From a virus, in IMG/VR virus record IMGVR_UViG_3300037116_000097: a DNA stretch of 64,000 nucleotides. One strand, given 5' to 3'. Of this stretch, positions 2,659 through 63,746 are shown in pieces. The notes beneath the pieces were generated by a model, which saw only the letters and a program-made list of their open reading frames with translations, did no database searches and was not told the origin of the DNA. Made by a program: the position numbers and the translations under genes. The stretch's first letter is position 1, and each line of letters begins with the position of its first letter.

Positions 2659-3101
2659 CCACCTCCCCTATCACTCCCGTACCTGCGGTGGAAGGGAAGT
2701 CCGCCGTAGGTACGGGTTCCACCCCGCGCTCGTGGACGCTGGAGTTGCCCGCGGGCATGCGCCTGCTGTCCCTCAACGGCCGGTACCACTGGGCCGAGAA
2801 GGGCCGCATCACCCGCGACCTCCGCGCCGCAGCATGCGTCCTGGCACGGCAGGCGAAGATCCCTCCGCTCGGGCGCGCCCGCGTGACCGTGACCTACCAG
2901 CCGCCGCTCATCTCCCGTCGCCGCGACATCGATAACGTCGGGCCGGCCAGCGGGAAGCCATGTCTTGATGGCGCGCTCACCGATGCCCGCGTGCTGCTGG
3001 ACGACTCCCCGCAGTACCTGACTGAGGTCACCTACCGCATAGGGGAGCCGTACCCGAAGGGCCGGTTGGTGCTGACCATAACCGAGGTACCGCCATGCTG
3101 A
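2655..3101 (+). CDS. rusA: RusA-family Holliday junction resolvase
   Basis: SLNGRYHW.., RRRDIDNVG..K..LDGL.., LLDDSPQYL.., GRLVLTITEV align with the E. coli RusA pattern. Confidence 0.85.
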   Translation: MTTSPITPVPAVEGKSAVGTGSTPRSWTLELPAGMRLLSLNGRYHWAEKGRITRDLRAAACVLARQAKIPPLGRARVTVTYQPPLISRRRDIDNVGPASGKPCLDGALTDARVLLDDSPQYLTEVTYRIGEPYPKGRLVLTITEVPPC

Positions 3102-6456: not shown

Positions 6457-6800
6457 ACGCAATCGAGGCCGGCAAGCTACTGGGGCTCATGGCCCAGTAC
6501 GACTACCGGGAGACCGCGCCATCGGACGTAGCGGCGTGGCTCCGCGTCATCGGCGATCTTCCCTACGCCGACTGCGAGACCGCCGTCATCGCGTACTACC
6601 GCTCGTGCCGGGACCGCATGATGCCGTCCGACGTCCGGGACCGCGTGACCGACATCCGGCGCGAGCGGCTGAAGAACGCCCCGGCGCTGGAGCCGCCGCG
6701 CGAGGTAGCCGACGACCCGGCCAAGTACGTCGAGTGGCTGGCAGCCGAGCGCAAGAAGATCGCGGACGGCCCGCAGGCGCTCAAGGCGGTGACCTCGTGA
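6453..6800 (+). CDS. hypothetical protein (115 aa), possible helicase-loading accessory
   Basis: GTGA overlap; position immediately upstream of DnaB; no motif recognised. Confidence 0.5.
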   Translation: MNAIEAGKLLGLMAQYDYRETAPSDVAAWLRVIGDLPYADCETAVIAYYRSCRDRMMPSDVRDRVTDIRRERLKNAPALEPPREVADDPAKYVEWLAAERKKIADGPQALKAVTS

Positions 6801-8152
6801 GCGAGGACTTCCTGGCGCCGGCCGAGGCCGTCATCGCCGCGGAACGGGCCGTGCTCGGGATCATCATCGGGTCGCGGCATGCGGCCGAGGAATCGGGTGA
6901 CGCGCTGGTCCCGGACGATTTCTGGCTGCCGAGGCACCAGCTGATTTTCGAGGCAGTGCAGGCGCTGGCCGAGGGCGACGGACCGGTTGAGCCTGCCGCG
7001 GTGATGGCGGTGCTGACCCAGCGCAGGCAGGTCGCGCAGGCAGGCGGCGGCGTCTTCCTCGCCGAGCTTGGCGAGATGCGGGTGCTGGCCCAGTCGCTGG
7101 GCTGGTACCTCCGCGAGGTGCTGAAGGACTCCGGGCGCCGCAAGATGGGGCGCCTGTCGATCCAGCTTGCGCAGATGGCGTCCAGCCCCAGCTACGACCC
7201 GGACCTGGACCCGGACACGGCGCGGAAGCTGCTCGAGGACGCGCTGGCGGCCCGCGGTGAAAGCCGGGCGCTGACATCGGGTGACGTGTTCGTGAACGCC
7301 CTGCGGCGGCTCGAGGAGCCGGAGGACAAGAGCGGGGCGATATCCCCGCCGTGGGATGACCTGCGGGACCTGATCCCGGTGTTCCGGCCCGGCCAGCTCA
7401 TCACCGTAGGGGCCCGGCCGGGTGCCGGCAAGAGCGTCATCGCCAGTGACGTGCTGCGGCATGTCGGGCTGAAGCTGCGGCTGCCGTCGATCTTGTTCTC
7501 GATGGAGATGTCCGAGGCCGAGGTCACCGACCGGATGCTGTCCGCGGAGTCCTCGGTGTCGCTGTCCCGGATCCAGGCCCGCGAGCTGGACGACCACGAC
7601 TGGAACCGGATCGCGCGGCTGGGCGACAGGTTCGCCGAGGGCGCGTTCGTGCTGGATGACACCCCGAACATCTCCCTGGCGCACATCCGCTCGAGGCTGC
7701 GGGGGATGGCCCGGCGCGACCCGGCGCGGATAGCGATCGTGGACTACCTCCAGCTGGTGAAGTCGCCCGGGTCCGCGGAGTCCCGGGAGCGGGAAGTGGC
7801 CGCGCTGGCATCCGGGCTGAAGAACCTCGCCCGCGAGTTCGCTATCCCGGTCCTGCTGCTGGCACAGCTGAACCGCGGCCCGGAGGCGAGGCACGACAAG
7901 AAGCCCACGAAGGCCGACCTGCGCGAGTCCGGGGCGATCGAGAACGACTCCGATGTCGTGATCCTGATCCACCGGCCGGACATGGGTGACCCGGAGTGCG
8001 CGCGCACCGGGGAGGCGGACCTGATCGTGGACAAGAACCGGGCCGGGCCGACCGGGACGCGCACGGTGCTTTTCCAGGGCCACTACGGGCGCTTCTCCGG
8101 CATGGCGTGGACGCCGACTTCATCCCTCGGTGATGACCGGAGGTCGGCATGA
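6797..8152 (+). CDS. dnaB: DnaB-like replicative DNA helicase
   Basis: GTG 6797 (GTGA overlap); ERAVLG N-domain, Walker A GARPGAGKS, IVDYLQL, arginine finger region LLAQLNRG. Confidence 0.9.
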   Translation: MSEDFLAPAEAVIAAERAVLGIIIGSRHAAEESGDALVPDDFWLPRHQLIFEAVQALAEGDGPVEPAAVMAVLTQRRQVAQAGGGVFLAELGEMRVLAQSLGWYLREVLKDSGRRKMGRLSIQLAQMASSPSYDPDLDPDTARKLLEDALAARGESRALTSGDVFVNALRRLEEPEDKSGAISPPWDDLRDLIPVFRPGQLITVGARPGAGKSVIASDVLRHVGLKLRLPSILFSMEMSEAEVTDRMLSAESSVSLSRIQARELDDHDWNRIARLGDRFAEGAFVLDDTPNISLAHIRSRLRGMARRDPARIAIVDYLQLVKSPGSAESREREVAALASGLKNLAREFAIPVLLLAQLNRGPEARHDKKPTKADLRESGAIENDSDVVILIHRPDMGDPECARTGEADLIVDKNRAGPTGTRTVLFQGHYGRFSGMAWTPTSSLGDDRRSA

Positions 8153-27523: not shown

Positions 27524-27991
27524 ATGGATGAAGCTGACCGCCGGTTCGCTGAGAACCTCCGGTTCTACCGCGAGCAGGCCGGGGTGACTCAGGCTGAGCT
27601 GGCCGGGCGGATGAAGGAAGCCGGGTTCGGCGCGTTCCGCCAGCAGACCATCGCGCGCATCGAGAGCCTCGGCCGCCGGGCGAGCCTCGGGGAGGCGATC
27701 GCGCTCGGCCGGTCGATCGGCACCACGGCCGACGCGCTGGCCCGGCCGCACGGGCTCGCCCGCGAGGCATCCCATGTCCTTAATGCGGGACGGCAGGTAA
27801 TAGCCATCCACAACGACCTGCGCGACCTGGTGCGCAGGTTCGGCCAGCGGCAGGAAAGCCTGCGGCTGGTGATGGAGCGCATAGAGACCGAAGGCCACGC
27901 CGCTGAGCTGGCCATCGAGATGTCCGTGGCGCGGCGCGCTGCTGCGCTATCCCTCGCGGACATCACCGGCAGGAGCATGGAGGCAGTCTGA
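27524..27991 (+). CDS. XRE-family HTH protein, immunity repressor candidate
   Basis: FAENLRFYREQAGVTQAELAGRM; stop overlaps integrase ATG. Confidence 0.6.
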   Translation: MDEADRRFAENLRFYREQAGVTQAELAGRMKEAGFGAFRQQTIARIESLGRRASLGEAIALGRSIGTTADALARPHGLAREASHVLNAGRQVIAIHNDLRDLVRRFGQRQESLRLVMERIETEGHAAELAIEMSVARRAAALSLADITGRSMEAV

Positions 27992-29211
27992 TGGCGTGGA
28001 CGGAAGATCGCTGGATCGTCAGGGTCGCGAACGATGACGGCAGCAAGACGGACGTGCACTCGTCCCGCTACGGCTATGGCCTGCGCTGGCGCGTCAGGTA
28101 CGAGACGGCGGACGGCGCGGAGCGCAGCAGGTCGTTCGCGCGCAAGCCCGACGCCGACAGGTTCCGCACCGAGACGGAAGCGGACCTCATGCGCGGCACC
28201 TACCGCGACCCGGACGCCGGGAAGATAACCCTGCAGAGGTACGCCGGCCAGTGGCTGGAGAACCAGACCTTCGATGATTCAAGCCGGGAGAACATCGGCT
28301 ACCGGATCGAGCACGTCAATGCCGGGCTCGGCGGCAAGCGCCTGGATCAGGTCACCCCGTCGATGGTGAACGCCTGGATGCGGGGACTGCGGCTGGCGCC
28401 GTCGACAAAGCGGCAGTGCCTGACGGCGCTGTCCAGCATCTTCGCCGCAGCCGTGGATGATGGCCGCGTGGCGGTCAACCCCTGCCGTGCCCGCTCGGTG
28501 AAGGCACCGAAGGCCGACCGGCACGAGGTCGTGCCGCTTGAGGAAGCCCATCTCGCGGGACTACGTGACGGATTTCCTGCCCGGTACCGGGCGATGGTGG
28601 ACGCCGGCGCGGAGTGCGGGCTGCGGCAGGGCGAGATATTCGGCCTCTCCGTCGATGAGATTGACTTCCTGCACCGGGCCGTGCACGTCGTGCGGCAGGT
28701 AAAGATCGTCGGCGGCAGGATGGTGTTCGCCGCCCCGAAGGGCCGCAAGAAGCGTGACGTCCCGCTGCCCCGGCTCACTGCGGAGACGTTCGCTGAGCAC
28801 GTCCGCAAGTTCCCGCCCGTCCCGGTCACGCTGCCCTGCCATGCGCCGGGCACCCGCCAGCACGGAAAGCCGGTCACGGTACGGCTGATCTTCACGTCGC
28901 CGGTCGCCCGGATGGCGGTGAGCCGGCACAGGTTCAATACCAACGTCTGGAAGCCGGCGCTGAAGGCCGCGGGCATCCCGGCGACGCGGGAGAACGGGAT
29001 GCACGTGCTGCGGCACTCCTACGCCTCGGCGCTCCTGCACCGCGGCGTGGACATCAAGCGCGTCGCCAAGTGCCTCGGCCACGACGATCCGGGATTCACT
29101 TTGCGGACCTACACGCACCTGATGGAGGGAGGCGATGAGCAAGTCCGCCAGGCCATCGACGCGGGAGCTACCGTACCCTCACCGGCCCCAGCGCTCCGAG
29201 AGGTTAGATAA
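27991..29211 (+). CDS. int: tyrosine integrase
   Basis: C-terminal catalytic region LRQGE, HVLRHSYASALL, LGHDDPGFTLRTYTHL. Confidence 0.9.
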   Translation: MAWTEDRWIVRVANDDGSKTDVHSSRYGYGLRWRVRYETADGAERSRSFARKPDADRFRTETEADLMRGTYRDPDAGKITLQRYAGQWLENQTFDDSSRENIGYRIEHVNAGLGGKRLDQVTPSMVNAWMRGLRLAPSTKRQCLTALSSIFAAAVDDGRVAVNPCRARSVKAPKADRHEVVPLEEAHLAGLRDGFPARYRAMVDAGAECGLRQGEIFGLSVDEIDFLHRAVHVVRQVKIVGGRMVFAAPKGRKKRDVPLPRLTAETFAEHVRKFPPVPVTLPCHAPGTRQHGKPVTVRLIFTSPVARMAVSRHRFNTNVWKPALKAAGIPATRENGMHVLRHSYASALLHRGVDIKRVAKCLGHDDPGFTLRTYTHLMEGGDEQVRQAIDAGATVPSPAPALREVR

Positions 29212-41326: not shown

Positions 41327-41785
41327 TTACGACGCCGTTGCCGTGAGAAGTCCTGACCCGTTTATCGTCAGCGTAAATGTCGAGGACGTGACGGTGACCG
41401 CGCCGCCGAAGTCCCAGAAGCAGATCAGCTGATAGGTGCTGGCCGACGACTCGTAGTACACGGCCTGGTTGGCGGTGAAGCTCGCGCTGGTCCAGTTCGG
41501 GTTGGATGCGCTGGTCCAGGTGGCGACAGTGTTGTTGGAGCCTCCCGCCGTGAAAGTCGGCGAGGAGACGGCCACGCCCCCGGTGGTGTAGCCGGTGCCG
41601 GTGATCTCCGTGACGATGGAGGTCCAGTCGGTGAACAGCTTCGCGGTGGAGATCCCGGACGTCGCCAGCCCGATCGGCCCGGCGGCGTTGCCGAGGGCTA
41701 CCTTGTAGGTGCCGCCGGTCATGGCTATATCGCCCACGCCGAGCCCGATGGCGAACTGGGGGAAGACGTGCGAGGTTACGCTCAT
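41327..41785 (-). CDS. minor tail protein (152 aa)
   Basis: Thr/Ser/Gly-rich beta-type sequence; position. Confidence 0.5.
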   Translation of the reverse strand: MSVTSHVFPQFAIGLGVGDIAMTGGTYKVALGNAAGPIGLATSGISTAKLFTDWTSIVTEITGTGYTTGGVAVSSPTFTAGGSNNTVATWTSASNPNWTSASFTANQAVYYESSASTYQLICFWDFGGAVTVTSSTFTLTINGSGLLTATAS

Positions 41786-42330
41786 TCCAAGTGCCTTTCG
41801 AGGTAGTGCGCGGCCTCAATGAGCCACTTGGGGTTGTCATTCATGTTCCCGAGGGCGAGGTTGCACGGCCGGCACAGCAGCCCGCGGAACTTGCCAGTCA
41901 GGTGGTCGTGATCAATGCAGAGCCGCCTGGCCTTCCTGCGCGTCTCATCCCTGTCTGCGGGTGGCTGCCCGCAGATATCGCACAGGCCGTTGTGCGCACG
42001 AAAGTGCGCCACGACCTCTTCGACATCAAGGCCGTACTCCTTGGCCCGGCGCCGCAAATCAGCCGGCATCCACTTCTGCGGGTTCTTTTGATAACGCAGC
42101 CGCTGTAGCTCGTTGTCCCTATCCCGGTTGCCGTCTCGCCACGCCGGCCTGCCCGCCGCCCGCTTGTTGTGACAAGCCTTGCAGCGACTCCGCCGCTCAC
42201 CCGGCTTGCGGTCCTTCAAGTAGAAGTCCTCGACCGGCAGCACCAGATTGCAGCCTGTGCATGCCTTTGTCGCGCTAGGTGCCCGGAAGGAGATGTCATC
42301 GAAAAGCGTGAGGGCAGGCGTATCCTGCAT
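41782..42330 (-). CDS. endonuclease VII-family (T4 gp49-like) HNH nuclease
   Basis: LCIDHDHLTGKFRGLLCRPCNLALG signature; AAGAGGTG RBS. Confidence 0.8.
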   Translation of the reverse strand: MQDTPALTLFDDISFRAPSATKACTGCNLVLPVEDFYLKDRKPGERRSRCKACHNKRAAGRPAWRDGNRDRDNELQRLRYQKNPQKWMPADLRRRAKEYGLDVEEVVAHFRAHNGLCDICGQPPADRDETRRKARRLCIDHDHLTGKFRGLLCRPCNLALGNMNDNPKWLIEAAHYLERHLE

Positions 42331-48478: not shown

Positions 48479-49678
48479 ATGTCCCGCTACCGGCTGACTC
48501 CGACGCCTGCGCAGGAAGCCGTGATGCGGGAGCATTGCGCCCATGCGCGGTTCGTTTGGAACCTCGGCCATGAGCAGCGGCTGATGTACCGCGCCGGTCG
48601 CGGTCGCACTCCCAGCTACCTGGAGCAAAGTCGGCAGCTAGCAGAGGCTCGCGCCGCTGAACCGTGGCTTGCGGCCGGGGCGCATGTGGTTCAGCAGCAG
48701 GCACTGAGAGATCTCGATGAGGCTTGGCGGTACTTCTTTTCCGGAAAACACCGCAAGCCGACTTGGCGGAAGGCATTCCGCAAGGAAGGTTTCCGCATTA
48801 CCGGCAAGCTAGGCCGGGACTGGAAGCTTCGGCGCCTGTCAAAGCATGTTGGTGAGGTGTGGATCACCAAGATCGGCTGGGTGCGCTTCCGCTGGTCGCG
48901 CGCCGTGCCGCCGGCTAAATCGTTCCGGGTCACGGTTGATGGCGCTGGGCGTTGGCACATTGGATTCGCCGCGTGGCCCGCCCCGGCAACACCCGGTCCG
49001 GGAATCGGCGAGGTCGTCGGCATTGACCGGGGCATTGCGGTCTCGGCTGCCCTGTCCACTGGCGAGATGCTGCACTGCCCCGGTCTGAGCGAAACTGAGC
49101 GTGCGCGCATCCTGCGGCTGGAACGCAAGTCCGCCCGTCAGCGCATTCGCGGACAGCCCGCATCTAGCCGGCTTGATCGCACCTACCGGGCCGTCGCTAA
49201 GCTGCGAGCGCGCGCGACAGATCGACGCAAAGACTGGGTGGAAAAGGTTTCCACGGACATCGCGCGCAGGTTCGACGTGATCCGGGTAGAAGATCTCAAG
49301 GTCAGGCATTTGACGCGCTCGGCAAGGGGATCCGCCGCTAGGCCAGGGCGTAATGTCCGCCAGAAATCTGTCGTAAACAGGGCCATACTCTCAAGCGGGT
49401 GGGCACCCCTGGTCTGTCGGCTTGAGGACAAGGCACCCGGCCGGGCGCAGAAGATCAACCCGCGCTACACATCCCAGCGGTGCTCGGAGTGCGGGCGCAT
49501 CGCAGCTGAGAACCGCAAGAGCCAAGCGGTTTTCGCCTGCGTGGCCTGCACTTATACCGGCAACGCTGACGTGAACGCGGCCAAGAACATCGCGGCAGGG
49601 CATGCCGTGACTGCGCGGGGAGGTCCCCAGTTGGGGCCGCTGAACCGCGAACCTCAGCTTGCGCTTCTATCTGCGTAG
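48479..49678 (+). CDS. tnpB: TnpB (IS605 OrfB) RNA-guided endonuclease family protein
   Basis: RuvC triad candidates GIDRG, IRVEDL, NADVNAAKNI; zinc finger CSECG...CVAC; typical N-terminus YRLTPT..Q. Confidence 0.85.
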   Translation: MSRYRLTPTPAQEAVMREHCAHARFVWNLGHEQRLMYRAGRGRTPSYLEQSRQLAEARAAEPWLAAGAHVVQQQALRDLDEAWRYFFSGKHRKPTWRKAFRKEGFRITGKLGRDWKLRRLSKHVGEVWITKIGWVRFRWSRAVPPAKSFRVTVDGAGRWHIGFAAWPAPATPGPGIGEVVGIDRGIAVSAALSTGEMLHCPGLSETERARILRLERKSARQRIRGQPASSRLDRTYRAVAKLRARATDRRKDWVEKVSTDIARRFDVIRVEDLKVRHLTRSARGSAARPGRNVRQKSVVNRAILSSGWAPLVCRLEDKAPGRAQKINPRYTSQRCSECGRIAAENRKSQAVFACVACTYTGNADVNAAKNIAAGHAVTARGGPQLGPLNREPQLALLSA

Positions 49679-50286: not shown

Positions 50287-50360
50287 TGCGGGGTGGCGCA
50301 GTTCGGTAGCGCGGCGGGCTCATAACCCGCAGGTCGCGGGTTCAAATCCCGTCTCCGCAT
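50287..50360 (+). tRNA. tRNA with CAU anticodon (Met; initiator-like stem, or Ile2)
   Basis: Manual cloverleaf: acceptor TGCGGGG/CTCCGCA, D GCGC/GCGC, anticodon stem GCGGG/CCCGC, loop CTCATAA, T stem GCGGG/CCCGT, loop TTCAAAT; no encoded CCA. Confidence 0.85.
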
Positions 50361-53433: not shown

Positions 53434-54111
53434 TCAGGTGATGTAGTTGGTGCGGCCGGTGCGCTTGTGGTCCCAGTAGTGGACTGCCACGGCGCCGGGC
53501 GGGGGAACCCACGAGGGTGTCAGCAGCCCCAGCTCGGTGGAGTGCACCGGGTTGAACGTCTCGCGGGGGAAGGCGTGCAGGACACCCGGACGGGCTGCCA
53601 TCGCCTCGCCCATCAGCGCGTTCCCGGTCGCGTCGGGGATGATGCCGTTGCCCTCGGCCTTCATCCGCCAGTACCGCGCTGGCAGGAGGCCGGTGACCAC
53701 GGACTCCCAGAACGGGTGCCCGGCCGGCCCGCCGAACGCGGCGTTGACGACCCCGCGCCACTCCTCATCGCTCTCCCACGACGCCCACGGCTGCCGGGTA
53801 AGGACATCGCCGAGGAGGGACAGCGGGCGCAGGGGCCGGATGTCGCAGTTGACGTAGGTGCCGCCGAACCTGTTCACCAGGTCGTAGGCGATCACGTCCG
53901 CGAGCGCGACGGCCATCTCGATCGAGCCGCCCTTGGTGCAGCGGCCCCGGATGTCCTCCAGCACGTCCTCGTTAGCGAGATCCTCGGGCAGGTTGTGCCA
54001 GCCCCACTCGATGACCTTCGCGCCGGGGTTGAGTTCCTGCCATTTCTTCCCGAAGCCGCGGAACGGCGCCGGCATGGGCCGGGGGCCGAGCCACATGCGG
54101 TGAATCAGCAC
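53434..54111 (-). CDS. glycosyltransferase, GT32/OCH1-like (DXD sugar transferase)
   Basis: IHRMWLGP..P, LADVIAYDLVNRFGGTYVNCDI pattern. Confidence 0.65.
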   Translation of the reverse strand: MLIHRMWLGPRPMPAPFRGFGKKWQELNPGAKVIEWGWHNLPEDLANEDVLEDIRGRCTKGGSIEMAVALADVIAYDLVNRFGGTYVNCDIRPLRPLSLLGDVLTRQPWASWESDEEWRGVVNAAFGGPAGHPFWESVVTGLLPARYWRMKAEGNGIIPDATGNALMGEAMAARPGVLHAFPRETFNPVHSTELGLLTPSWVPPPGAVAVHYWDHKRTGRTNYIT

Positions 54112-54992
54112 CCGGCCAGCTCCCGGTAGTGCGCGACCGTCCGGGCGAGCCCGTCCTCGAGCGGGACCGCTCCCGGCAGCCCGGCTTTCGCGAGCACGAC
54201 GCTGCCGGGTGTCTCGCCGGGCCGCATCGGCAGGAAATCCACCGTGGCCGTGATCCCCGTCTGCCGCTGCACCTCAGCGCGGGTCAGCCACGCTACCTGC
54301 GCAACCGTCGTCGCCCGCCCGGTGCCGGCTTCCAGCGGCTCATCCGGCACATCCCCGGCGGCCAGGCCCTCCAGCGCGGTCACGAGCGCCCCGGAGACAT
54401 CGGTCACGTAGACCATGTCCATCACCTGGGAGCCGTCGCCGTAGACCTCTACAGGCTCGCCGTGCAGTGCCCGCATGATGAACGACGGGATGATCTTCCG
54501 CACCCTCGACGTGCCGTAAGGCGCGGCGACCGACTGGCCCGGCCCGTAGGCGTTGAAGGCCCGCACCGACGCGACCGGCAGGCCCCGGTACCGCCGGTAC
54601 ATCCCCGCGAACCGCTCCGCCGCGTTCTTCGTCACCGAGTAGGTGGAGAACTCGAACCAGTTCCCGACCGCGATGTTCACCAGCGGCACCCCGTACTGGG
54701 CGCATGCTTCCAGCACGTTCAGGGCGCCGAGGATGTTGACCTCCGCCGCCGGCCTCGGGTTCGTGATCGTCTCCGCCGTGCCGAGGACGCCGGCAAGGTG
54801 GATGACGCCCTCGCAGTGCGCGACCGCCTCCGTGACCGCCGTCGCGTCCCGGACATCGCCGAGGATCACGTCATGCGCGCAGTCGCGGTCCCGCAGCCGG
54901 TCAAGGACCAGCGGGGAATGACCTGCTGCTATCAGGGCGTCACACGTATTCCGGCCGATGAATCCCGCGCCCCCGCTGACCATTACCCTCAT
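54105..54992 (-). CDS. NAD-dependent sugar epimerase/dehydratase (SDR)
   Basis: MRVMVSGGAGFIGRN Rossmann motif; YSVTK catalytic YxxxK. Confidence 0.85.
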   Translation of the reverse strand: MRVMVSGGAGFIGRNTCDALIAAGHSPLVLDRLRDRDCAHDVILGDVRDATAVTEAVAHCEGVIHLAGVLGTAETITNPRPAAEVNILGALNVLEACAQYGVPLVNIAVGNWFEFSTYSVTKNAAERFAGMYRRYRGLPVASVRAFNAYGPGQSVAAPYGTSRVRKIIPSFIMRALHGEPVEVYGDGSQVMDMVYVTDVSGALVTALEGLAAGDVPDEPLEAGTGRATTVAQVAWLTRAEVQRQTGITATVDFLPMRPGETPGSVVLAKAGLPGAVPLEDGLARTVAHYRELAGC

Positions 54993-56116
54993 GCGGTGAT
55001 CCTCGCTTCCAGCTCGGCGAGAGCCGGGGCCCAGTGCTCCTTCAGCACCCGGTCAGCGTCGTACTGCGCGGCGAAGGGGACGCACTTAGCCCGCCTGGCC
55101 TCGTAGACCTTCCCCCGCAGGTACGCCTGCTCATACGCCCGGTGGATGGCGGCGATCGACGGGCGGGTCCAGCAGGCGTTGTGGACCGGGTTCCAGAACG
55201 GCTCCCCGGCGACTTTCCACCCGCCGCCGCACATCTCCGCCATCGCCCCGGCATCCGTGACCACAACCGGAATCCCGCAGCTCTGAGCCTCTAGCGCAGT
55301 GATCCCGAAGCCCTCGCCGAAACTGGCCTGCGAGTACAGGTCAAGTGCCCCGTACCAGTTCGCCACCTGCTGGCTGGTGATCATCCCGGTCAGGTACTCG
55401 TACTGCCCGCAGAACTTCACCGCGTCCTGGATGCCCAGGTGGTGCGTCACCTTCGACAAGTCCACTGAGCCCACCTCGTGGACCAGCCCGTGGATCAGCA
55501 GCAGCGTGTCCGGGTGCGCCGCGTGCAGCCTCGCGAACGCCGCCAGCTGCTCGTACATGCCTTTACGGAAGCTGTCCTTGTTGTTCGCGTTGATGCCGAT
55601 CGTGAACTTCCCGGCGGCCCCCAGGATCTCCCTGGTCTCCTCCCGGATCGGCGACGGCGAGAACAGGGCCGTATCGATCCCGTGGGGCACGTAGAGCGGC
55701 GAGTATCCCGCTGCCCTGAGCCGTGCCTCCCCGGCGCGTGACATCGCGATCGGGATGGCCCCCGAGGCGTCCAGGAACGTCCTGTCGGCGCTCGACAGCG
55801 GCTCGGAGTCCGAGGGCATCCAGCAGGCCAGGGGCTGGCCTTTCAGCGGCGCCGGGTCCAGCACCCACACGTCCATCAGGGTGATGATCAGGTCCGCCCC
55901 GTGCCGTGCCCGGTGCTGCGGCAGGATCCCGGCGCCGTACGGGTCGCCGGGGAACGCGCCGGGCAGGACCGTGATCCCGTTCCACGCCAGCGGCGACCCG
56001 CCGAGGCCGTGGAACGCGGAGATGACTACCTCATGGCCGAGCTGCGGCAGGCGGGTCGCAAGCATGGCGGTTTGCGTACCATATCCTGAGCGTTCCCATG
56101 GAGCATTTGATCCCAA
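54989..56116 (-). CDS. GT-B glycosyltransferase family 1 (GT4-like)
   Basis: C-terminal GEGFGITALEAQSCGIPVVVTD motif; N-terminal start (TTG 56116) uncertain. Confidence 0.8.
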   Translation of the reverse strand: MGSNAPWERSGYGTQTAMLATRLPQLGHEVVISAFHGLGGSPLAWNGITVLPGAFPGDPYGAGILPQHRARHGADLIITLMDVWVLDPAPLKGQPLACWMPSDSEPLSSADRTFLDASGAIPIAMSRAGEARLRAAGYSPLYVPHGIDTALFSPSPIREETREILGAAGKFTIGINANNKDSFRKGMYEQLAAFARLHAAHPDTLLLIHGLVHEVGSVDLSKVTHHLGIQDAVKFCGQYEYLTGMITSQQVANWYGALDLYSQASFGEGFGITALEAQSCGIPVVVTDAGAMAEMCGGGWKVAGEPFWNPVHNACWTRPSIAAIHRAYEQAYLRGKVYEARRAKCVPFAAQYDADRVLKEHWAPALAELEARITA

Positions 56117-57175: not shown

Positions 57176-58335
57176 TCAGGAATAAGGCGTAACGTCACTA
57201 ACCTGGAGTCCCTGGAGCAAACCGGAGAAGAACGGTGCGTTCGCGATCAATGCCCCATACCAGAAGATGCTGAACCTAAAGGTCGCATCTATGACAGGCC
57301 AGGCGATACTGGCGTAATCTTGCACCATTCGGGCTTCCCAGGCATTGCTGATCTGGGAGTAGGTCATCGGCGGCTGGTAGGTCATGAAGGCCGCCGTGCC
57401 CTGCGTGAACCAGGGGTGGACGACCAGCTTGAGGATGGAGCGGGTGATCGGGTTCTGGAACTCGCTGACGGCGCCGCCGACGCGCATTCCCCCGACATCC
57501 TGCTGCTCCAGGAACAGGCGGTAGTTCGTCGCCGTCCCCGCCGAGATCACGTCGTTGGACAGGCGCATGATGTCGCCGCCGTCGCCGACGATCTCCTGCG
57601 GGTCCGCCTTGAACGCGCCCGGACTCGTGGTGTTGGACTCCCACAAGGCGTCCAGCGCCGTGTAGATGGCGTTGTAGGACAGGTGGGTGCCCACGGACTG
57701 GTTGACGTAGCCGCCCTGCCAGCCCGCCGGGTAGACCCCGGCTGCGGCAGACGCGCCGGAAAGCGTCGGGATGACGCCCTCCATCCGGGTGTTCTTCCCG
57801 GTGCCGGTGTCAGTCGCCGGCGGGACAACGGCGCTCGGCAGGGACGCGAAGCCCTGGAGGGTGTACTTCGTTCCGCCGACGCCCGATGCCAGCAGGTAGT
57901 AGCTGGTAGCGGACGTGTAGCCGTAGATGCTGTACGTCATCGCGCCCGCGGACGGGGCGATCGTGACATCCACGACCTGGCCGGAAGCCACGGCGAACGT
58001 GGACGACGCGGCCGAGACGGCGGTGGAGCCGAAGTAGTTGGTCGCGGCCACCTTGACCGCGGTGAGGTTGGTGTTGAGCGCCGTCTCGTTGGAGCCGGCG
58101 GTGCGGACGGCGCAGGTCGGTGCTGCGGGAACGGCCAGCGGAGCCGAGGTTCCGGCGATGAACTGGTACTCCTCGCCGAGCATGGCCTCCTGAAGCATGA
58201 TCAGGTTGGCCAGGCCGGCAATGTCCTCGAAGCCCTGCCCTGCGAACTGCGCGAGCCACGAAAGCTGCTCGCTGATGCCGAAGAAGCGGTACGGAACATT
58301 CCAGTCGTTGTTACTCGCCGCCAGAGGCGGCGGGG
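57176..58335 (-). CDS. major capsid protein, exon 2 (boundary approximate)
   Basis: Frame open back to 58348, well upstream of first ATG (58198); ..NNDWNVPYRFFGISEQLSWLAQFAGQGFEDIAGL.. is coding-like. Confidence 0.6.
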
Positions 58336-59368
58336 CTAGTCGTTTCCGCTAGCCTCCTGCGCTCTCACGCAGGCTCGGACTCGATCATGATCTGAACTTA
58401 TGCAGCGACCGGCAGGCCAAGCTTCCTGGCCATATGCTGCCGGCGCCTAGTCAGGTCCAGCTCGCCTAGCAGGCGAGCGCCCTTCCATCGATTACATGTG
58501 CTGTGTGCAGGCAGGATGTTGCCGGCAGTGTGCGTGCCGCCCCTCGCCAGCGGGATGACATGGTCGAAATCCATCGCATCGGCGGAAGGTATCTCCAGCG
58601 TGCAGATGTGACAGACCATGCCGTGCTCGGCGAGCAGGGCCTCCAGGTCCACGCGCTCGGTCCTGGTGGTCCGCTTCTGAGCTTTCCGGCGCCGGACGAA
58701 GCCCTTGTAGAGCGCGGGGCGCTTCGCGTACTTCTGCCGCCCGTAGGCGCGAACGGCGTCCGGGTCCCGGGCCATCGCGTCATCCCGGTTGCGCTTGACG
58801 ACTGCATGGAAGCAGTCGTTGCAGGTCCGGGCAAGCCAGACGCGATCGCCGGTCTTGTTCGGCGCCGGCCGGAAGAACTCGATGGTTAGCGGCTTCGGCT
58901 CTCCGCAGTCCCGGCAAACCCGAAACAGTTCGGGCGGTGCCTGGCAGGCGAGAGAGCAGAACCGGCGCCCCGTGTAGTCACGGAACTCCTTGCCGCATGA
59001 GCAGCGGACTATCTGGCCGCCTTTGCGGTAGGCGCTAGCGTAAGCCGTCGTCCAGGCACGGCATTTGTCACACAACCTGGCGCCGCCGCGCGGCCCCATC
59101 GTTGCTGGCTGCTTCTCGCACCTGATGCACAACACATGTTTATCGTACTAGTGTTCAGACCCCGCGTGCAGAGTCTCTGAACCTTTCCCGTGGGCGTGTT
59201 GCCTTTAGGGACTCGGCTGCTGATTGCCCCTCTGTGCTGCTTGCTTTTTGAACCATCACGCTCGGGCTTTCGCCCCACGTTGTGGTGCAAGCAGGTGGCT
59301 CGGGTATTCCAGCAATTCTCGCGGTTTGCACTCACCCGTCACCGGATGAGGTCCCAATCAGTTCAGGA
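58336..59368 (-). ncRNA. group I intron (about 1.03 kb) with internal HNH ORF
   Basis: P 59318-59303, Q 59226-59215, R 59183-59169, S 58388-58377; P1 GAGGTCT/GGACCTC with U.G; terminal G 58336; lower GC. Confidence 0.7.
58398..59135 (-). CDS. intron-encoded HNH endonuclease (245 aa)
   Basis: DFDHVIPLARGGTHTAGNILPAHSTCNRWKG HNH core; multiple CxxC N-terminal fingers. Confidence 0.8.
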   Translation of the reverse strand: MLCIRCEKQPATMGPRGGARLCDKCRAWTTAYASAYRKGGQIVRCSCGKEFRDYTGRRFCSLACQAPPELFRVCRDCGEPKPLTIEFFRPAPNKTGDRVWLARTCNDCFHAVVKRNRDDAMARDPDAVRAYGRQKYAKRPALYKGFVRRRKAQKRTTRTERVDLEALLAEHGMVCHICTLEIPSADAMDFDHVIPLARGGTHTAGNILPAHSTCNRWKGARLLGELDLTRRRQHMARKLGLPVAA

Positions 59369-60053
59369 AGACCTCGGTCTGACTGCCCGAGGGAGGCAGG
59401 TTGAGAGGCCAGTTCGAGAACGTACCGCCGCTCTGAACCAGCTCGGTGATGGAGACGTCGAGGACGCCCTGGCCGCCGGTCTGGCTGCCAGAGATGCCGG
59501 TGATGACCCGTTCCTGCGCACTCGTGCCCTGGCCCTGGGGCCGGGGAAACTTGTTGCGGAAAACGGTATAAACCGGATAGATCAGACGACTCGGGCGCAT
59601 GAGATCAAACGGCACCAACCCGTACACACTGCCCACGCCGAGGTTCCCGGCCGTGAAGTTCTTGAACGCCTCGCTGCCGCCGGGCATGCCGGCGAAGACA
59701 CCCGACAGGGTGTCCATCAGCGAAGGCGCGGTCAGGGCCGTCTTCAGGTACCCGAACTGGTTCAGGAACCCCTGGTTCATGCCCTTGACCACGGCGGGCT
59801 TGTCGTTGATGCCGTTCCAGGTTGACTGCCGCAGGTCGATAGCGGCCTGGCTGGCCTTGGTCATGATCTGGATCTCGTCGGTGAGGGGGGCGTTGCCGAG
59901 TCCGGCGTAGCCCGCTCCCTTGACGAGGTTGGGGAGCCGGGCCTTCAGCATCTCTCCCGTGCGGGAGAACTGCTGGACGTTGCCGGCTACCTCGGCGCCC
60001 GTGGGGCTGAGCTGGTCAGCCGGGGCGATTGTTGCTTCGAGAATGTCTGCCAT
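59369..60053 (-). CDS. major capsid protein, exon 1 (ORF runs to TGA 59358 inside intron)
   Basis: AAGGAG RBS before ATG 60053; 228 aa up to predicted 5' splice site. Confidence 0.6.
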
Positions 60054-60902: not shown

Positions 60903-63662
60903 TTACCGCACGCCGCCCGCGACATTCAGCAGCCTGGTCAGCTCCTGCCACGCGACTTCGCGCTTGCCGGGGTCCGGGTCGTTGCGGGCCTGGTGCTGGA
61001 GGTCCCGGATGAGGGATTCCTGCACGTTGCTGGCTGCCTTCTCCACGGCGCTCCGCTCGGGGACCGCCGGGGATGGCTGCATGGCCTTCGGGCGCACCCC
61101 GCCTGCGCCTACGGCCTTGAAGGGGGCGTAGCGGGGGTCAGGGGCAGAGGCCATCTGGTCGATGAGCTCTCCCTGCTGCTCAAGCTTCGCGGCAAGGGGG
61201 GCGACGGCCTTCTCGACGGCTGCCTGCAGCGCCGCGGCGTCCAGCGACGGGACGGGCAGGGCAGCGACGACGGGAAGCGGGTCCGCTGCCTTGGCCGCCA
61301 TGTCGCCCTTCACGGGCATCTTGTCGCCGCAGCCGGGGCAGAACTTGCCGGGCCGTGCCTTCTTGCCGCACTTGCAGTCCATCTTGGCCGGCTTGCCCGG
61401 CGCGGCTGCCTTGGTGACGGGCAGGTCGCCCTCGTACTGGACGCCCGTGGTCTCCCCGGACGCGCCGTCTGCCTTCCGGGCTCCCGGCACCGGGACGGGG
61501 CGCGCGCCAGCGGGCGGCTGCCCGCCGTGACCGGGCCCGTGCATGGGGCACAGGTCAGGGAACGTTCCCGCAATGTGGTCGTGCATGGACGCCATCGCGG
61601 ACCTGGCGCCGTCACGGCTCGTGTTGCGGTAGAACGTCCGCTGCGGCTTCCCCGGCACCGAGGGGACAGCCTGGGAGCCGTTGTCCCCGCCGGGCTCGCT
61701 GGAGGCTTCCTGGCCCCCGGTGAGAGGACCGCGGGTGAAGTCCGTAGCGGAGATGTGCTCAGCGGTGATGGTCATCGGGCTCGCGCCGCTTGCCGCCGTC
61801 GTGTTCGACTGGTCCATGCCGGACAGGGCCGGGCGGCGGAACGACTGCGGGCGCAGCTCGGACGGGGCCGGGTAGGTGGAAGGGCCGGGGTTCGCGTCGG
61901 CGAACGCCTTGTGCGCCTCCCAGCGCAGGCCGGTGACCGTCTCCGCGTCGGTTCCGGCGATGGTGAGGGCGTCCTGCCAGCGGCGCTGCGCCTTCCCCGC
62001 CTCGGCCAGCGGCGCGTCGATCGCGGCCGACAGGGCCTTCGACTGCCATTCCGCCGGGTCCGCGACCATCGCAAGCGTCTGGCCGGGGTAGGACTTCGCG
62101 GTCGCGTCCGGGGAGAACGCCGGGCACAGGAAGTCGTGCAGCATCCCCTCGCCCCACGACGCGCCCGCGTTCCTGATGTGCCACGACGCGGCCTCGGAGC
62201 CCGCGGTCTTGCCCGTCTGCGCCATCTCGGCAGCAGGAGGGGCCACAGCGGCCTCGGCTGCCCGCTCGGAGGGCTCGTCCGGGTTGGTGCCCTCCAGGTG
62301 CGCGTCGTCCTCGAGCTGTTCCATCGCCACCCCGTCAGGCTCCCGGTGAGGGGTAACGGGGTCGGTCGGCGCGGAGTCCTTCACGCCATCGGCAGGAGAC
62401 GGGGACGCGGCCTTGTCGGCAGCATCGGGCTTGTCGGGGGTCATCTTCTTGCCGCACTTGAAGCAGAACGGGTTCTTCGCGCCGGACTTCTTGCCGCACG
62501 ACGGGCACGCCATCTTCGGCTTCGCGGCCTTGTCGGCGACAGGAACGGCGGGCGCGTCATCGGCCGTGGCGGCCTTCTCCGCGTCGTCGGTGAGCGGGTT
62601 GGCGACGCCCAGTTCACTCGCGCGCTTGGCGATCAGCGCCTTCGCGGCGGTGACGTCACCGTGCCCGGAGCGGGCCAGGATCGCGGCGTTGCCCAGATCC
62701 TCCGCGTTGGCGATCGGATAGGAACCGTCGCTCAATGCGTGGCCCTTGCCAGCCAGTTCCTTGCGCTCGGCAGCGGACACGTCCCGCTTCCAGATCGCCG
62801 ACTCGACGGCCTTCAGCGCGTCGGCCACGGCAACCTCTGCCGCGTCCGTTTCCGCTGCCTTCGGCATGTCCGTGTCATCCGGGGCGTCCATGTCAGCGTC
62901 GGATGCCTCGTCCTCCTGGTCAGCCGCAGCGTTGTCGCCGCCGGCCTCGTCGGCTCCCGCAGCTGCCTTCTGCGCTTCAGCGTCCTCGGCGATCTCCCGG
63001 TGCTTCAGCAGCTTCGCGAGGTCGGACGGGGAGAACGTGAGGGACGCCTTGATCACGTCGGGCTCGTCTGTCTTGGTGGTCGTGCCATCGCCTCCGAGCA
63101 TCTTGCCGACGAACTCCGGGCCGCCATCGGCTGCCGCCTTGAACAGCTGGAAAGCAGTGCCGAAGTTGGAACCGCGATCAACGACTGAGATCTCGCCGAG
63201 CCCGGTCATGCCGTCCGCGCGGTCGGTGATGACTCCCCGGACCGCCTTGTGCTCAGGGTCCAGGTGGTTGAAGCGCGGGTCGCCGACGCGGATGTCCGGG
63301 TGGCAGATGCCGATGCTCCAGTCGTTCAGCACCTTGGTGCGGATCTTGTGCTTGGCGTCGGGGTCGGCGATCAGGCCCTTGACGAAGTGGCCGTCGACCT
63401 CCAGCCCGCGCCCGACCGCCTTGCGCGGGTCGTGCTGCATGCGGATGTTGGCCTTGGTGTCGAACCACTTCTTGATCCACCGGAGGCTGGCTTCGGGGTC
63501 TACGACCTGAAGATCTCCGTCGAGGGTGCCATCGGTGACCTTCCCCCAGATCTCTATGTCCGGGGTGCCGTCCACGGGGTTAATCGTCCCCGTGTCCTCT
63601 GACTTCGAGATCGGCATCGAGAAGTGGACCATCTCGTTGCCGGCGGTCAGTGTGTTCGCCAT
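60903..63662 (-). CDS. capsid maturation protease (HK97/S78-like N-domain) fused to long scaffold-like region with two zinc ribbons
   Basis: GGAGGTGC-ATG at 63662; IRMQHDPRKAVGRG and NDWSIGI (His/Ser candidates); CPSCGKK..CFKCGKKM and CKCGKK..CPGCGDKM in Ala/Asp/Pro-rich region. Confidence 0.6.
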   Translation of the reverse strand: MANTLTAGNEMVHFSMPISKSEDTGTINPVDGTPDIEIWGKVTDGTLDGDLQVVDPEASLRWIKKWFDTKANIRMQHDPRKAVGRGLEVDGHFVKGLIADPDAKHKIRTKVLNDWSIGICHPDIRVGDPRFNHLDPEHKAVRGVITDRADGMTGLGEISVVDRGSNFGTAFQLFKAAADGGPEFVGKMLGGDGTTTKTDEPDVIKASLTFSPSDLAKLLKHREIAEDAEAQKAAAGADEAGGDNAAADQEDEASDADMDAPDDTDMPKAAETDAAEVAVADALKAVESAIWKRDVSAAERKELAGKGHALSDGSYPIANAEDLGNAAILARSGHGDVTAAKALIAKRASELGVANPLTDDAEKAATADDAPAVPVADKAAKPKMACPSCGKKSGAKNPFCFKCGKKMTPDKPDAADKAASPSPADGVKDSAPTDPVTPHREPDGVAMEQLEDDAHLEGTNPDEPSERAAEAAVAPPAAEMAQTGKTAGSEAASWHIRNAGASWGEGMLHDFLCPAFSPDATAKSYPGQTLAMVADPAEWQSKALSAAIDAPLAEAGKAQRRWQDALTIAGTDAETVTGLRWEAHKAFADANPGPSTYPAPSELRPQSFRRPALSGMDQSNTTAASGASPMTITAEHISATDFTRGPLTGGQEASSEPGGDNGSQAVPSVPGKPQRTFYRNTSRDGARSAMASMHDHIAGTFPDLCPMHGPGHGGQPPAGARPVPVPGARKADGASGETTGVQYEGDLPVTKAAAPGKPAKMDCKCGKKARPGKFCPGCGDKMPVKGDMAAKAADPLPVVAALPVPSLDAAALQAAVEKAVAPLAAKLEQQGELIDQMASAPDPRYAPFKAVGAGGVRPKAMQPSPAVPERSAVEKAASNVQESLIRDLQHQARNDPDPGKREVAWQELTRLLNVAGGVR

Positions 63663-63746
63663 GCACCTCCGGAAAGGGCAGATCGGGTAGACCGCCGTGG
63701 CGGCAAGGGGGAGAACGAAGATCACTAGGGGGGGGATGCGGCGGCG

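Follow-up and report, generated by a model that had tools for sequence, protein, structure and literature searches.

A group I intron with an HNH endonuclease gene very probably splits the major capsid gene in a viral sequence from IMG/VR

Group I introns with HNH endonuclease genes are said to have been described by Goodrich-Blair and Shub in 1996, and by Landthaler and Shub, in the DNA polymerase genes of the Bacillus phages SPO1 and SP82 (I-HmuI, I-HmuII) and Bastille (I-BasI). The closest case in a virion structural gene is that of the mycobacteriophage LittleE: an 819-bp intron that carries a homing-endonuclease gene interrupts its major capsid gene, and Pope et al. (2013; PMC3706429) demonstrated splicing with reverse transcription PCR and with N-terminal sequencing of the protein over the junction. 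By a citation in that paper, a capsid-gene intron also occurs in the lactococcal phage Tuc2009, and phage Twort, as cited in PMC6669764, has three group I introns in one gene, orf142 (Landthaler and Shub, 1999). Here we analyze a 64,000-nt stretch of viral DNA, IMG/VR record IMGVR_UViG_3300037116_000097 (hereafter, the window), in which two minus-strand open reading frames (ORFs) are very likely the exons of one major capsid gene, split by a group I intron that carries an HNH gene and is functional or was so until recently. A preliminary description of this DNA had presented such an arrangement as not known to be described for actinophage capsid genes, a claim of novelty that fails because the capsid intron of LittleE had already been demonstrated experimentally in 2013 (PMC3706429). 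A literature search on capsid introns of Streptomyces phages returned nothing relevant.

The two ORFs were found where the preliminary description had placed them, at 60053-59358 (231 aa) and 58198-57176 (340 aa), and the frame of the second, as read from the sequence, is open upstream to 58348. In unspliced RNA, the frame of the first runs into a TGA at 59360-59358 and yields the 231-aa product. Conceptual splicing gave a 604-aa protein from a gene spanning 60053-57176 (-), and phrog_13692 (491 positions) matched this protein as one stretch spanning the junction. A search of 5.8 billion proteins returned 800 matches to the spliced protein, with identity up to 73% and coverage up to 100%; the best 120 of these were uninterrupted, ~570-630 aa long, mostly at 95-100% coverage, and all unnamed. 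A few homologs came from Streptomyces and Actinoallomurus assemblies. IMG/VR held at least 222 loci of the family, many on contigs of 105-135 kb, and at least 70 of the 80 alleles checked there were uninterrupted. Neither megablast with the region nor tblastn with the protein gave a match among 50,697 phage records. No invariant residue of the family has been lost from either exon in the window, and neither is broken by a frameshift or a stop codon. The proposal that the ORFs are two halves of one capsid protein is therefore upheld by the uninterrupted homologs and by the PHROG match across the junction, and the arrangement that had been named as contradicting it, two normally separate genes, is not that of the homologs, among which an uninterrupted gene is the rule. 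The span 60053-57176 (-) is one gene encoding one 604-aa protein. Virion assembly would depend on RNA splicing, because unspliced RNA can give only the truncated 231-aa product.

Sequence comparison supports the identification of the spacer between the exons as a group I intron. The core strings P, Q, R and S occur exactly as first described, at 59318-59303, 59226-59215, 59183-59169 and 58388-58377, and the pairings drawn between P and Q (P4) and between R and S (P7) are in the same register in Rfam and in RNAalifold, so the core pairings hold in a fold model. At the gathering threshold, an Rfam search of the whole window reported a tRNA only and no intron. On the spacer alone, RF00028 gave a partial match at 59318-59168 (P3-P7; 27.9 bits, E 8e-5, model positions 56-151 of 253); the check proposed beforehand thus returned the right family over part of the core, at a score below the gathering value of 50 bits. 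The match is only partial because a 0.78-kb ORF in P8 splits it. Several capsid homologs with introns of this lineage are referred to by locus number (L036, L040, L041, L059, L067, L094, L122, L129, L165, L173, L190, L195, L198, L202 and L206). The ORF-less sister introns of three such alleles, with cores nearly letter-identical to that of the window, scored 63.9 (L040), 60.7 (L036) and 50.6 bits (L206) against the same cut-off. The Q...R core string was present in at least 119 viral contigs; the exact 20-mer of the P element was not found in viral contigs. With nhmmer, a seed of related introns matched the window at 59375-59094 (E 4e-62) and 58404-58291 (E 2e-27), and many full-length ORF-less relatives were recovered.

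For structural analysis, the window intron with its P8 loop replaced by GAAA was aligned with 22 ORF-less relatives (23 sequences), and the ORF-deleted intron aligned with them end to end. RNAalifold folded this alignment into P2, P3, P4, P5/5a/5b, P6, P8, P9, P9.1 and P9.2, a total of 71 pairs, 53 of them with compensatory changes. When the P7 pseudoknot was added, 97.6% of cells paired, as opposed to 31-38% when the partners were slid, and 56 of the 77 pairs covaried; none of 500 shuffles reached the observed pairing or covariation values. The window row forms 76 of the 77 consensus pairs and has all invariant core nucleotides. In L203, a 93%-identical copy from another sample, P2 is a compensatory version of the window helix (CCCAUGCG-GCGA-CGCAUGGG). 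The spacer had been described as lower in GC than its surroundings, which is true of the ribozyme parts (0.57-0.62) and not of the HNH ORF (0.64-0.70), which is like the exons. With regard to class, the 3-nt P7-P3 junction, which leaves no room for P7.1/P7.2, speaks tentatively against the T4-type IA2 class; the extended P5 together with P9.1/P9.2 looks IC-like. Catalysis by the intron and its splicing efficiency are predictions, the mechanism being drawn from established group I chemistry.

Comparison of protein and RNA places the splice junction, with good confidence, after U59365 (5′) and after G58302 (3′). The protein spliced in this way reads TEVFLNVPYRFF, and among all U...G combinations only this one gives that sequence at the family length of 604 aa; the homolog consensus at the junction, TEVxLNVPYRFFG, shows no insertion in 18 of 18 aligned homologs. 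The predicted ligated RNA is ...GAG GUC UUC CU|G AAU GUU CCG UAC..., with the junction GAGGUCUUCCU|GAAUGUUCCG (GAGGTCTTCCT|GAATGTTCCGTAC in DNA letters), and the intron interrupts the codon of the conserved Leu230 as CU|G. A rule for the guide sequence was taken from L036, where the junction is fixed by protein alignment: the guide is the 4 nt immediately 5′ of "C+P2". By this rule, 22 of the 23 introns have, 5-14 nt upstream, an NNNU that complements the guide, with nine guide variants covarying with the exon; the rule also holds in L202, L206, L094 and L190. Applied to the window, it gave UCCU/GGGA, UCCU being the last 4 nt of exon 1 (Table 1). On the 3′ side, omega-G lies 5-7 nt past an invariant GUAACA wherever the junction can be fixed, and G58302 is at +7. 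An open-frame test of 3′ sites met neighboring introns or gene ends within 120 nt in about half of the relatives. The L203 copy, whose P2 and P9.2 are rewritten with compensatory changes and whose tail has diverged, keeps the guide GGGA, an identical start of exon 2 and the junction UG|GAAUGUUCCG. L206, from an Actinomycetota metagenome-assembled genome, and L195 are likewise interrupted in this Leu codon, at exactly the phase seen in the window, the intron of the former being ORF-less. The insertion point is the most conserved motif of this part of the protein (Q225, E227, L230, N231, V232, P233, Y234, F236, F237, G238), and insertion in a highly conserved motif is typical of homing targets.

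Table 1. Predicted features of the split capsid gene and its intron (window coordinates)
Feature	Coordinates	Strand	Details
Capsid exon 1	59365..60053	-	689 nt; codons 1-229 plus CU of Leu230
Group I intron	58302..59364	-	1063 nt; begins GAACUGAUU, ends GUAACAACGACUG; omega-G 58302
Internal guide sequence GGGA	59352..59355	-	Pairs with exon UCCU (59368-59365); U59365.G59355 wobble; P1 loop 9 nt
P2 hairpin	59331..59350	-	CUCAUCCG-GUGA-CGGGUGAG; 8 bp, GNRA-capped; all 8 pairs covary
Catalytic core, 5′ part	59162..59324	-	Rfam RF00028 match; RNAalifold and covariation
P3	59324-59320 with 59166-59162	-	
P4	59314-59309 with 59223-59218	-	
Extended P5/P5a/P5b	~59305-59227	-	
P6	59216-59208 with 59189-59182	-	
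P7, 5′ strand GACUC	59175-59171	-	
P8 stem	58390..59160	-	GUCUGAAC (59160-59153) with GUUCAGAU (58397-58390); HNH gene in loop
HNH homing endonuclease gene	58398..59135	-	245 aa; GTG start; N-terminal CxxC...CxxC; HNH motif at residues 175-221
3′ domain	58302..58388	-	J8/7 and P7 3′ strand GAGUC (58382-58378), P9-P9.2, tail
P9	58373-58356	-	
P9.1	58354-58334	-	7 of 8 pairs covary
P9.2	58332-58316	-	
Intron tail		-	AGUAACAACGACUG; ends in omega-G 58302; carries conserved GUAACA
Capsid exon 2	57176..58301	-	1126 nt including stop codon; starts G AAU GUU CCG UAC (Leu230 completed, then NVPY)

Several observations weigh against a working intron with this junction. The RF00028 score in the window stays below the gathering score (27.9 vs 50 bits), the sixth P7 pair is U x C, and no convincing Shine-Dalgarno sequence precedes the GTG start of the HNH gene; the element may also sit in a prophage, as an integrase occurs in the window, and that prophage is possibly defective. 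P1 is only 4 bp, and a competing pairing of 4-7 bp (GUCU/GAGGUCU with GGAC/GGACCUC) lies 4 nt upstream of it. A real intron in the register of that pairing, with its 5′ site after U59369 (P1 GUCU/GGAC) and omega-G at 58306, would yield ...TEVYWNVPY... in a product of 604 aa from the junction GGUCUUCCU|GAAUGUU (in DNA, GGTCT|ACTGGAATG). Frame and length are correct, and P1 could be longer, up to 7 bp (GAGGUCU/GGACCUC) with a U.G wobble, yet the junction would place a Trp where all aligned homologs have Leu or Ile, and the extended P1 would break 3 bp of the covarying P2. In addition, the guide would be shifted by one base from its position in the 22 relatives, omega-G would be at +3 after GUAACA as against 5-7 nt elsewhere, L203 lacks a G at the equivalent position, and CU|N is the splice phase in L206 and L195; we regard this register as quite improbable. 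The junction of the preliminary description, after U59369 and after G58336 (59369|58335), is in frame without a stop codon and would give TEV-SPPPLAASNND-WNVPY in a protein of 614 aa (~615 aa had been claimed). Compared with the corrected product this is an insertion of 10 residues, which occurs in none of the 18 aligned homologs. Moreover, G58336 is inside the P9.1 hairpin, with two more helices and the conserved GUAACA tail beyond it; P9.2 and this tail would become exon, yet they are conserved as RNA across unrelated exon contexts. The GGACCTC of its P1 was found at 59354-59348 instead of 59353-59347, and the claimed pairing GAGGUCU/GGACCUC overlaps P2 by 3 nt in a register that differs from that of related introns. 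We consider this junction very improbable: its 5′ site appears to be off by 4 nt and its 3′ site by 34 nt.

A decayed, non-splicing relic, with the capsid gene a pseudogene in a defective prophage, would be in keeping with the integrase (27991-29211) and TnpB genes in the window, with the low Rfam score and with the one non-standard P7 pair. It is nonetheless improbable, in view of the intact core nucleotides and consensus pairs, the exons that have lost no invariant residue, the intact HNH ORF under apparent purifying selection, and the L203 copy, in which helix changes are compensatory and not disruptive. Finally, the mere existence of two ORFs would also be expected if these were separate genes, or if the insert were an intein or a group II intron, and we regard these readings as next to impossible. 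Separate genes do not fit the uninterrupted homologs, and a group II intron does not fit the lack of a reverse-transcriptase ORF or of a match to any Rfam group II family. The insert cannot be an intein because of the in-frame TGA after exon 1 and the further stops in the exon frame. An intein had been considered as a candidate in its own right and was rejected, the HNH ORF having its own start and stop and not forming one polypeptide with the host protein; the inserts in L059 and L036 are also full of stops. The group I intron spliced at U59365 and G58302 remains the preferred reading.

The 245-aa HNH ORF between R and S was found intact, as first described. It matched the Pfam families HNH (PF01844; 35.9 bits, cut-off 21.4, 8.5e-9) and HNH_5 (PF14279; 30.2 bits, cut-off 27.5), both at residues 175-223, and PHROG HNH and EndoVII families down to 4e-20 (PHROG 1035/338). 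The ORF lies wholly inside the loop closed by P8, its stop codon (58400-58398) abutting the 3′ strand of that stem; intron ORFs usually sit in peripheral loops that spare the ribozyme core (PMC3984707). Among its 78 homologs, the nearest were 95%, 70%, 63% and 60% identical, and comparison with the other capsid introns gave no close relative. The 60%-identical HNH is in L202, a 170-kb contig, in a related intron 10 nt further downstream. There, the N-terminal CxxC...CxxC is conserved upstream of the start chosen by the gene caller, in support of a GTG start at 59135 in the window. Relative to L203, the differing codons were 34 synonymous and 12 non-synonymous; judged by such codon counts, the HNH gene is under purifying selection. 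A second endonuclease VII/HNH-like ORF is present in the window at 41782-42330 (-; 182 aa; PHROG 2633, E 8e-33), between ORFs of 1019 and 245 aa. No copy of the intron core was detected near it by nhmmer, and for this reason it is probably a free-standing homing endonuclease.

Based on these features, we propose that the pre-mRNA would fold into P1-P9.2 with a P3/P7 pseudoknot, the 4-nt guide GGGA pairing with the exon end UCCU and presenting the U59365.G59355 wobble. Exogenous guanosine would then attack after U59365, and the freed exon 1 would attack after omega-G 58302, leaving a ligated message that would encode ...TEVFLNVPYRFF... within the 604-aa capsid protein. By analogy with other intron-encoded HNH enzymes, the endonuclease may cut or nick the intron-less capsid alleles of co-infecting relatives, for which GAGGTCTTCCTGAATGTTCCGTACCGC is the candidate target sequence, and the intron may be copied into the cut allele by recombinational repair (homing). 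The conserved target is polymorphic for presence and absence: at least 70 of the 80 alleles are uninterrupted, and related introns are found at this site and at nearby ones in other alleles.

The identity of the host protein was assessed mainly from its predicted structure. A first AlphaFold2 (AF2) model built from close homologs only had a predicted local distance difference test (pLDDT) score of 51, too poor for a fold search. A diverse alignment from an exhaustive HMMER search, with relatives down to 24% identity, gave a model with a pLDDT of 83.4 and a predicted template modeling score (pTM) of 0.71. Foldseek against the PDB returned 127 matches at E<=1e-3. Among the top 50, in which target TM reached 0.70, 49 were phage capsid chains, almost all of them HK97-fold major capsid proteins, and the remaining one was an encapsulin shell protein of the same fold. 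Matches included Pa223 (E 9e-13), SU10, SPO1, D3, HK97 and T5. Against BFVD, nearly all matches were named major capsid proteins, down to 1.5e-13, including that of Arthrobacter phage Jasmine. The HK97 fold, defined by a long beta-hairpin, spine helix, P-domain sheet and A domain, was assigned from the AF2 model and these matches. Sequence searches were less informative: the window protein had no match in Pfam, PF17236 (SU10_MCP) gave a weak match (E 1e-3) in only 3 of 78 distant relatives, sequence and profile searches of the PDB found no meaningful relative, and no curated capsid sequence family was matched, PHROG 13692 having no annotated function. Synteny in the intron-less relative L200 and in L202 fits a head module, with a gene of 940-1535 aa before the capsid gene and small head-tail-like genes and a long SLT-domain protein after it, and lends support to a predicted role as the major component of the virion shell. 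The model and this gene context, as distinct from any curated sequence family, support the assignment of the host gene as an HK97-fold major capsid protein, and the capsid label given beforehand can stand.

Two regions of the AF2 model are distinctive. The N-terminus (residues 1-121 and 130-151; window 60053-59600) is modeled as entirely helical, with a low-confidence linker after it, and is similar in this to the scaffolding delta domain that HK97-type capsid proteins have. A beta-rich insertion domain is set apart at residues ~290-380. Directly upstream of the capsid gene is a 940-aa ORF (60903-63725, -), for which the only match was a weak one to a zinc ribbon and whose long middle part is acidic and rich in Ala; its equivalents occupy the same position in L202 (951 aa) and L200 (1535 aa). 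This ORF might encode a head protein of the scaffold/protease type.

Of the 119 loci found via the intron core alone, 15 had the intron inside capsid-gene homologs. From tblastn boundaries and nucleotide checks, about eight clusters of sites were distinguished, at codons ~139, ~143-145, ~151-160, ~164, 230, 233/234, 272/273 and ~551-574, and four or five intron matches occurred in or beside single capsid loci (L122, L165, L190 and L206). L203, L206 and L195 also have an intron at the insertion site of the window. In L202 (LNIP|YRFM; guide GGGG, exon CCCU), L094 and L190, the intron sits 10 nt further downstream, and the latter two carry other cargo, an unrelated 313-aa ORF in the case of L094. 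These observations suggest, tentatively, that the ~600-aa HK97-fold capsid genes of this family, which come from soil actinophages with genomes of ~105-135 kb, may be an exceptional hot spot for one group I intron lineage with swapped endonuclease cargo. If so, it would be compatible with the use of intron endonucleases in competition between co-infecting phages. We know of no described phage structural gene that is this intron-dense, no systematic survey having been made. A shorter ORF-less variant of ~260 nt was observed as well (L067:6490-6750; L206:2735-3000). It shares the S/P9/P9.1/P9.2/GUAACA 3′ domain, has a different and compact P3-P6 region, was not detected by Rfam at E<0.001, and in L206 sits exactly at the insertion site of the window. 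The capsid frame of L206 shifts twice within exons (3050-3055 and ~4900), which probably reflects assembly errors and not biology.

Elsewhere in the window, a group-1 glycosyltransferase (375 aa) and an NAD-dependent epimerase/dehydratase (295 aa) are encoded at 54105-56116 (-) in the head-gene region, ~1-3 kb downstream of the capsid gene and beyond two small ORFs; the pair might serve virion glycosylation. An IS605-type OrfB/TnpB gene with a Cas12f1-like TNB domain (48479-49678, +) lies beside a tRNA gene (50287-50360, +) with the anticodon loop CUCAUAA and the anticodon CAU. A tyrosine integrase (27991-29211, +; PHROG 1, E 2e-52) and a DnaB-like helicase (6536-8152, +) were also identified. 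The window probably belongs to a temperate actinophage or a prophage.

The split has practical consequences for annotation, as automated gene callers would report two "hypothetical proteins" and an HNH gene in place of one capsid gene, which is what was seen in L202; with the corrected coordinates, the true capsid protein of 604 aa is obtained. The locus would also add another case in which RNA self-splicing is needed for virion production, here in a lineage of high-GC hosts with few introns described, and one intron lineage present at many sites offers a natural data set on how guide sequences change during the colonization of new sites. It bears, too, on the possible role of homing endonucleases in mediating competition between related phages (compare PMC11620839).

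Compared with its ORF-less sisters in L040, L036 and L206, the window intron has near-identical P, Q, R and S elements, the same P2-P9.2 architecture and GUAACA tail, and the same host gene family. The sisters are ~270-340 nt long and lie at codons ~139, 143, 150 and 260, whereas the window copy has a 0.78-kb HNH insertion in P8 and lies at codon 230. It resembles the introns of SPO1, SP82 and Bastille in having a free-standing HNH gene in a peripheral loop, and in that related introns and enzymes occur at nearby, non-identical sites; those introns are in DNA polymerase genes of phages with low-GC hosts and belong to a different intron subgroup, whereas the present one is in a virion structural gene of high-GC actinophages. 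As in Twort orf142, several group I introns can occupy one phage gene; that gene belongs to a Staphylococcus myovirus and lies outside the present capsid family, in which four or five intron matches occur in or next to the capsid gene at some loci. The likeness to LittleE is closest. In both, an actinobacteriophage major capsid gene appears as two ORFs, with U at the end of exon 1 and G at the end of the intron, an endonuclease gene lies in the intervening sequence, and sister phages have intron-less alleles. The LittleE capsid is unrelated in sequence to that of the window (nothing was found by tblastn among the 50,697 phage records), and its endonuclease gene, on the opposite strand, encodes a LAGLIDADG-like enzyme with an HNH-like tail, whereas the HNH gene described here is on the same strand, in the P8 loop. 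No structural model accompanied the "most likely group I" label of the LittleE intron, whereas the RNA structure of the intron in the window is supported by covariation.

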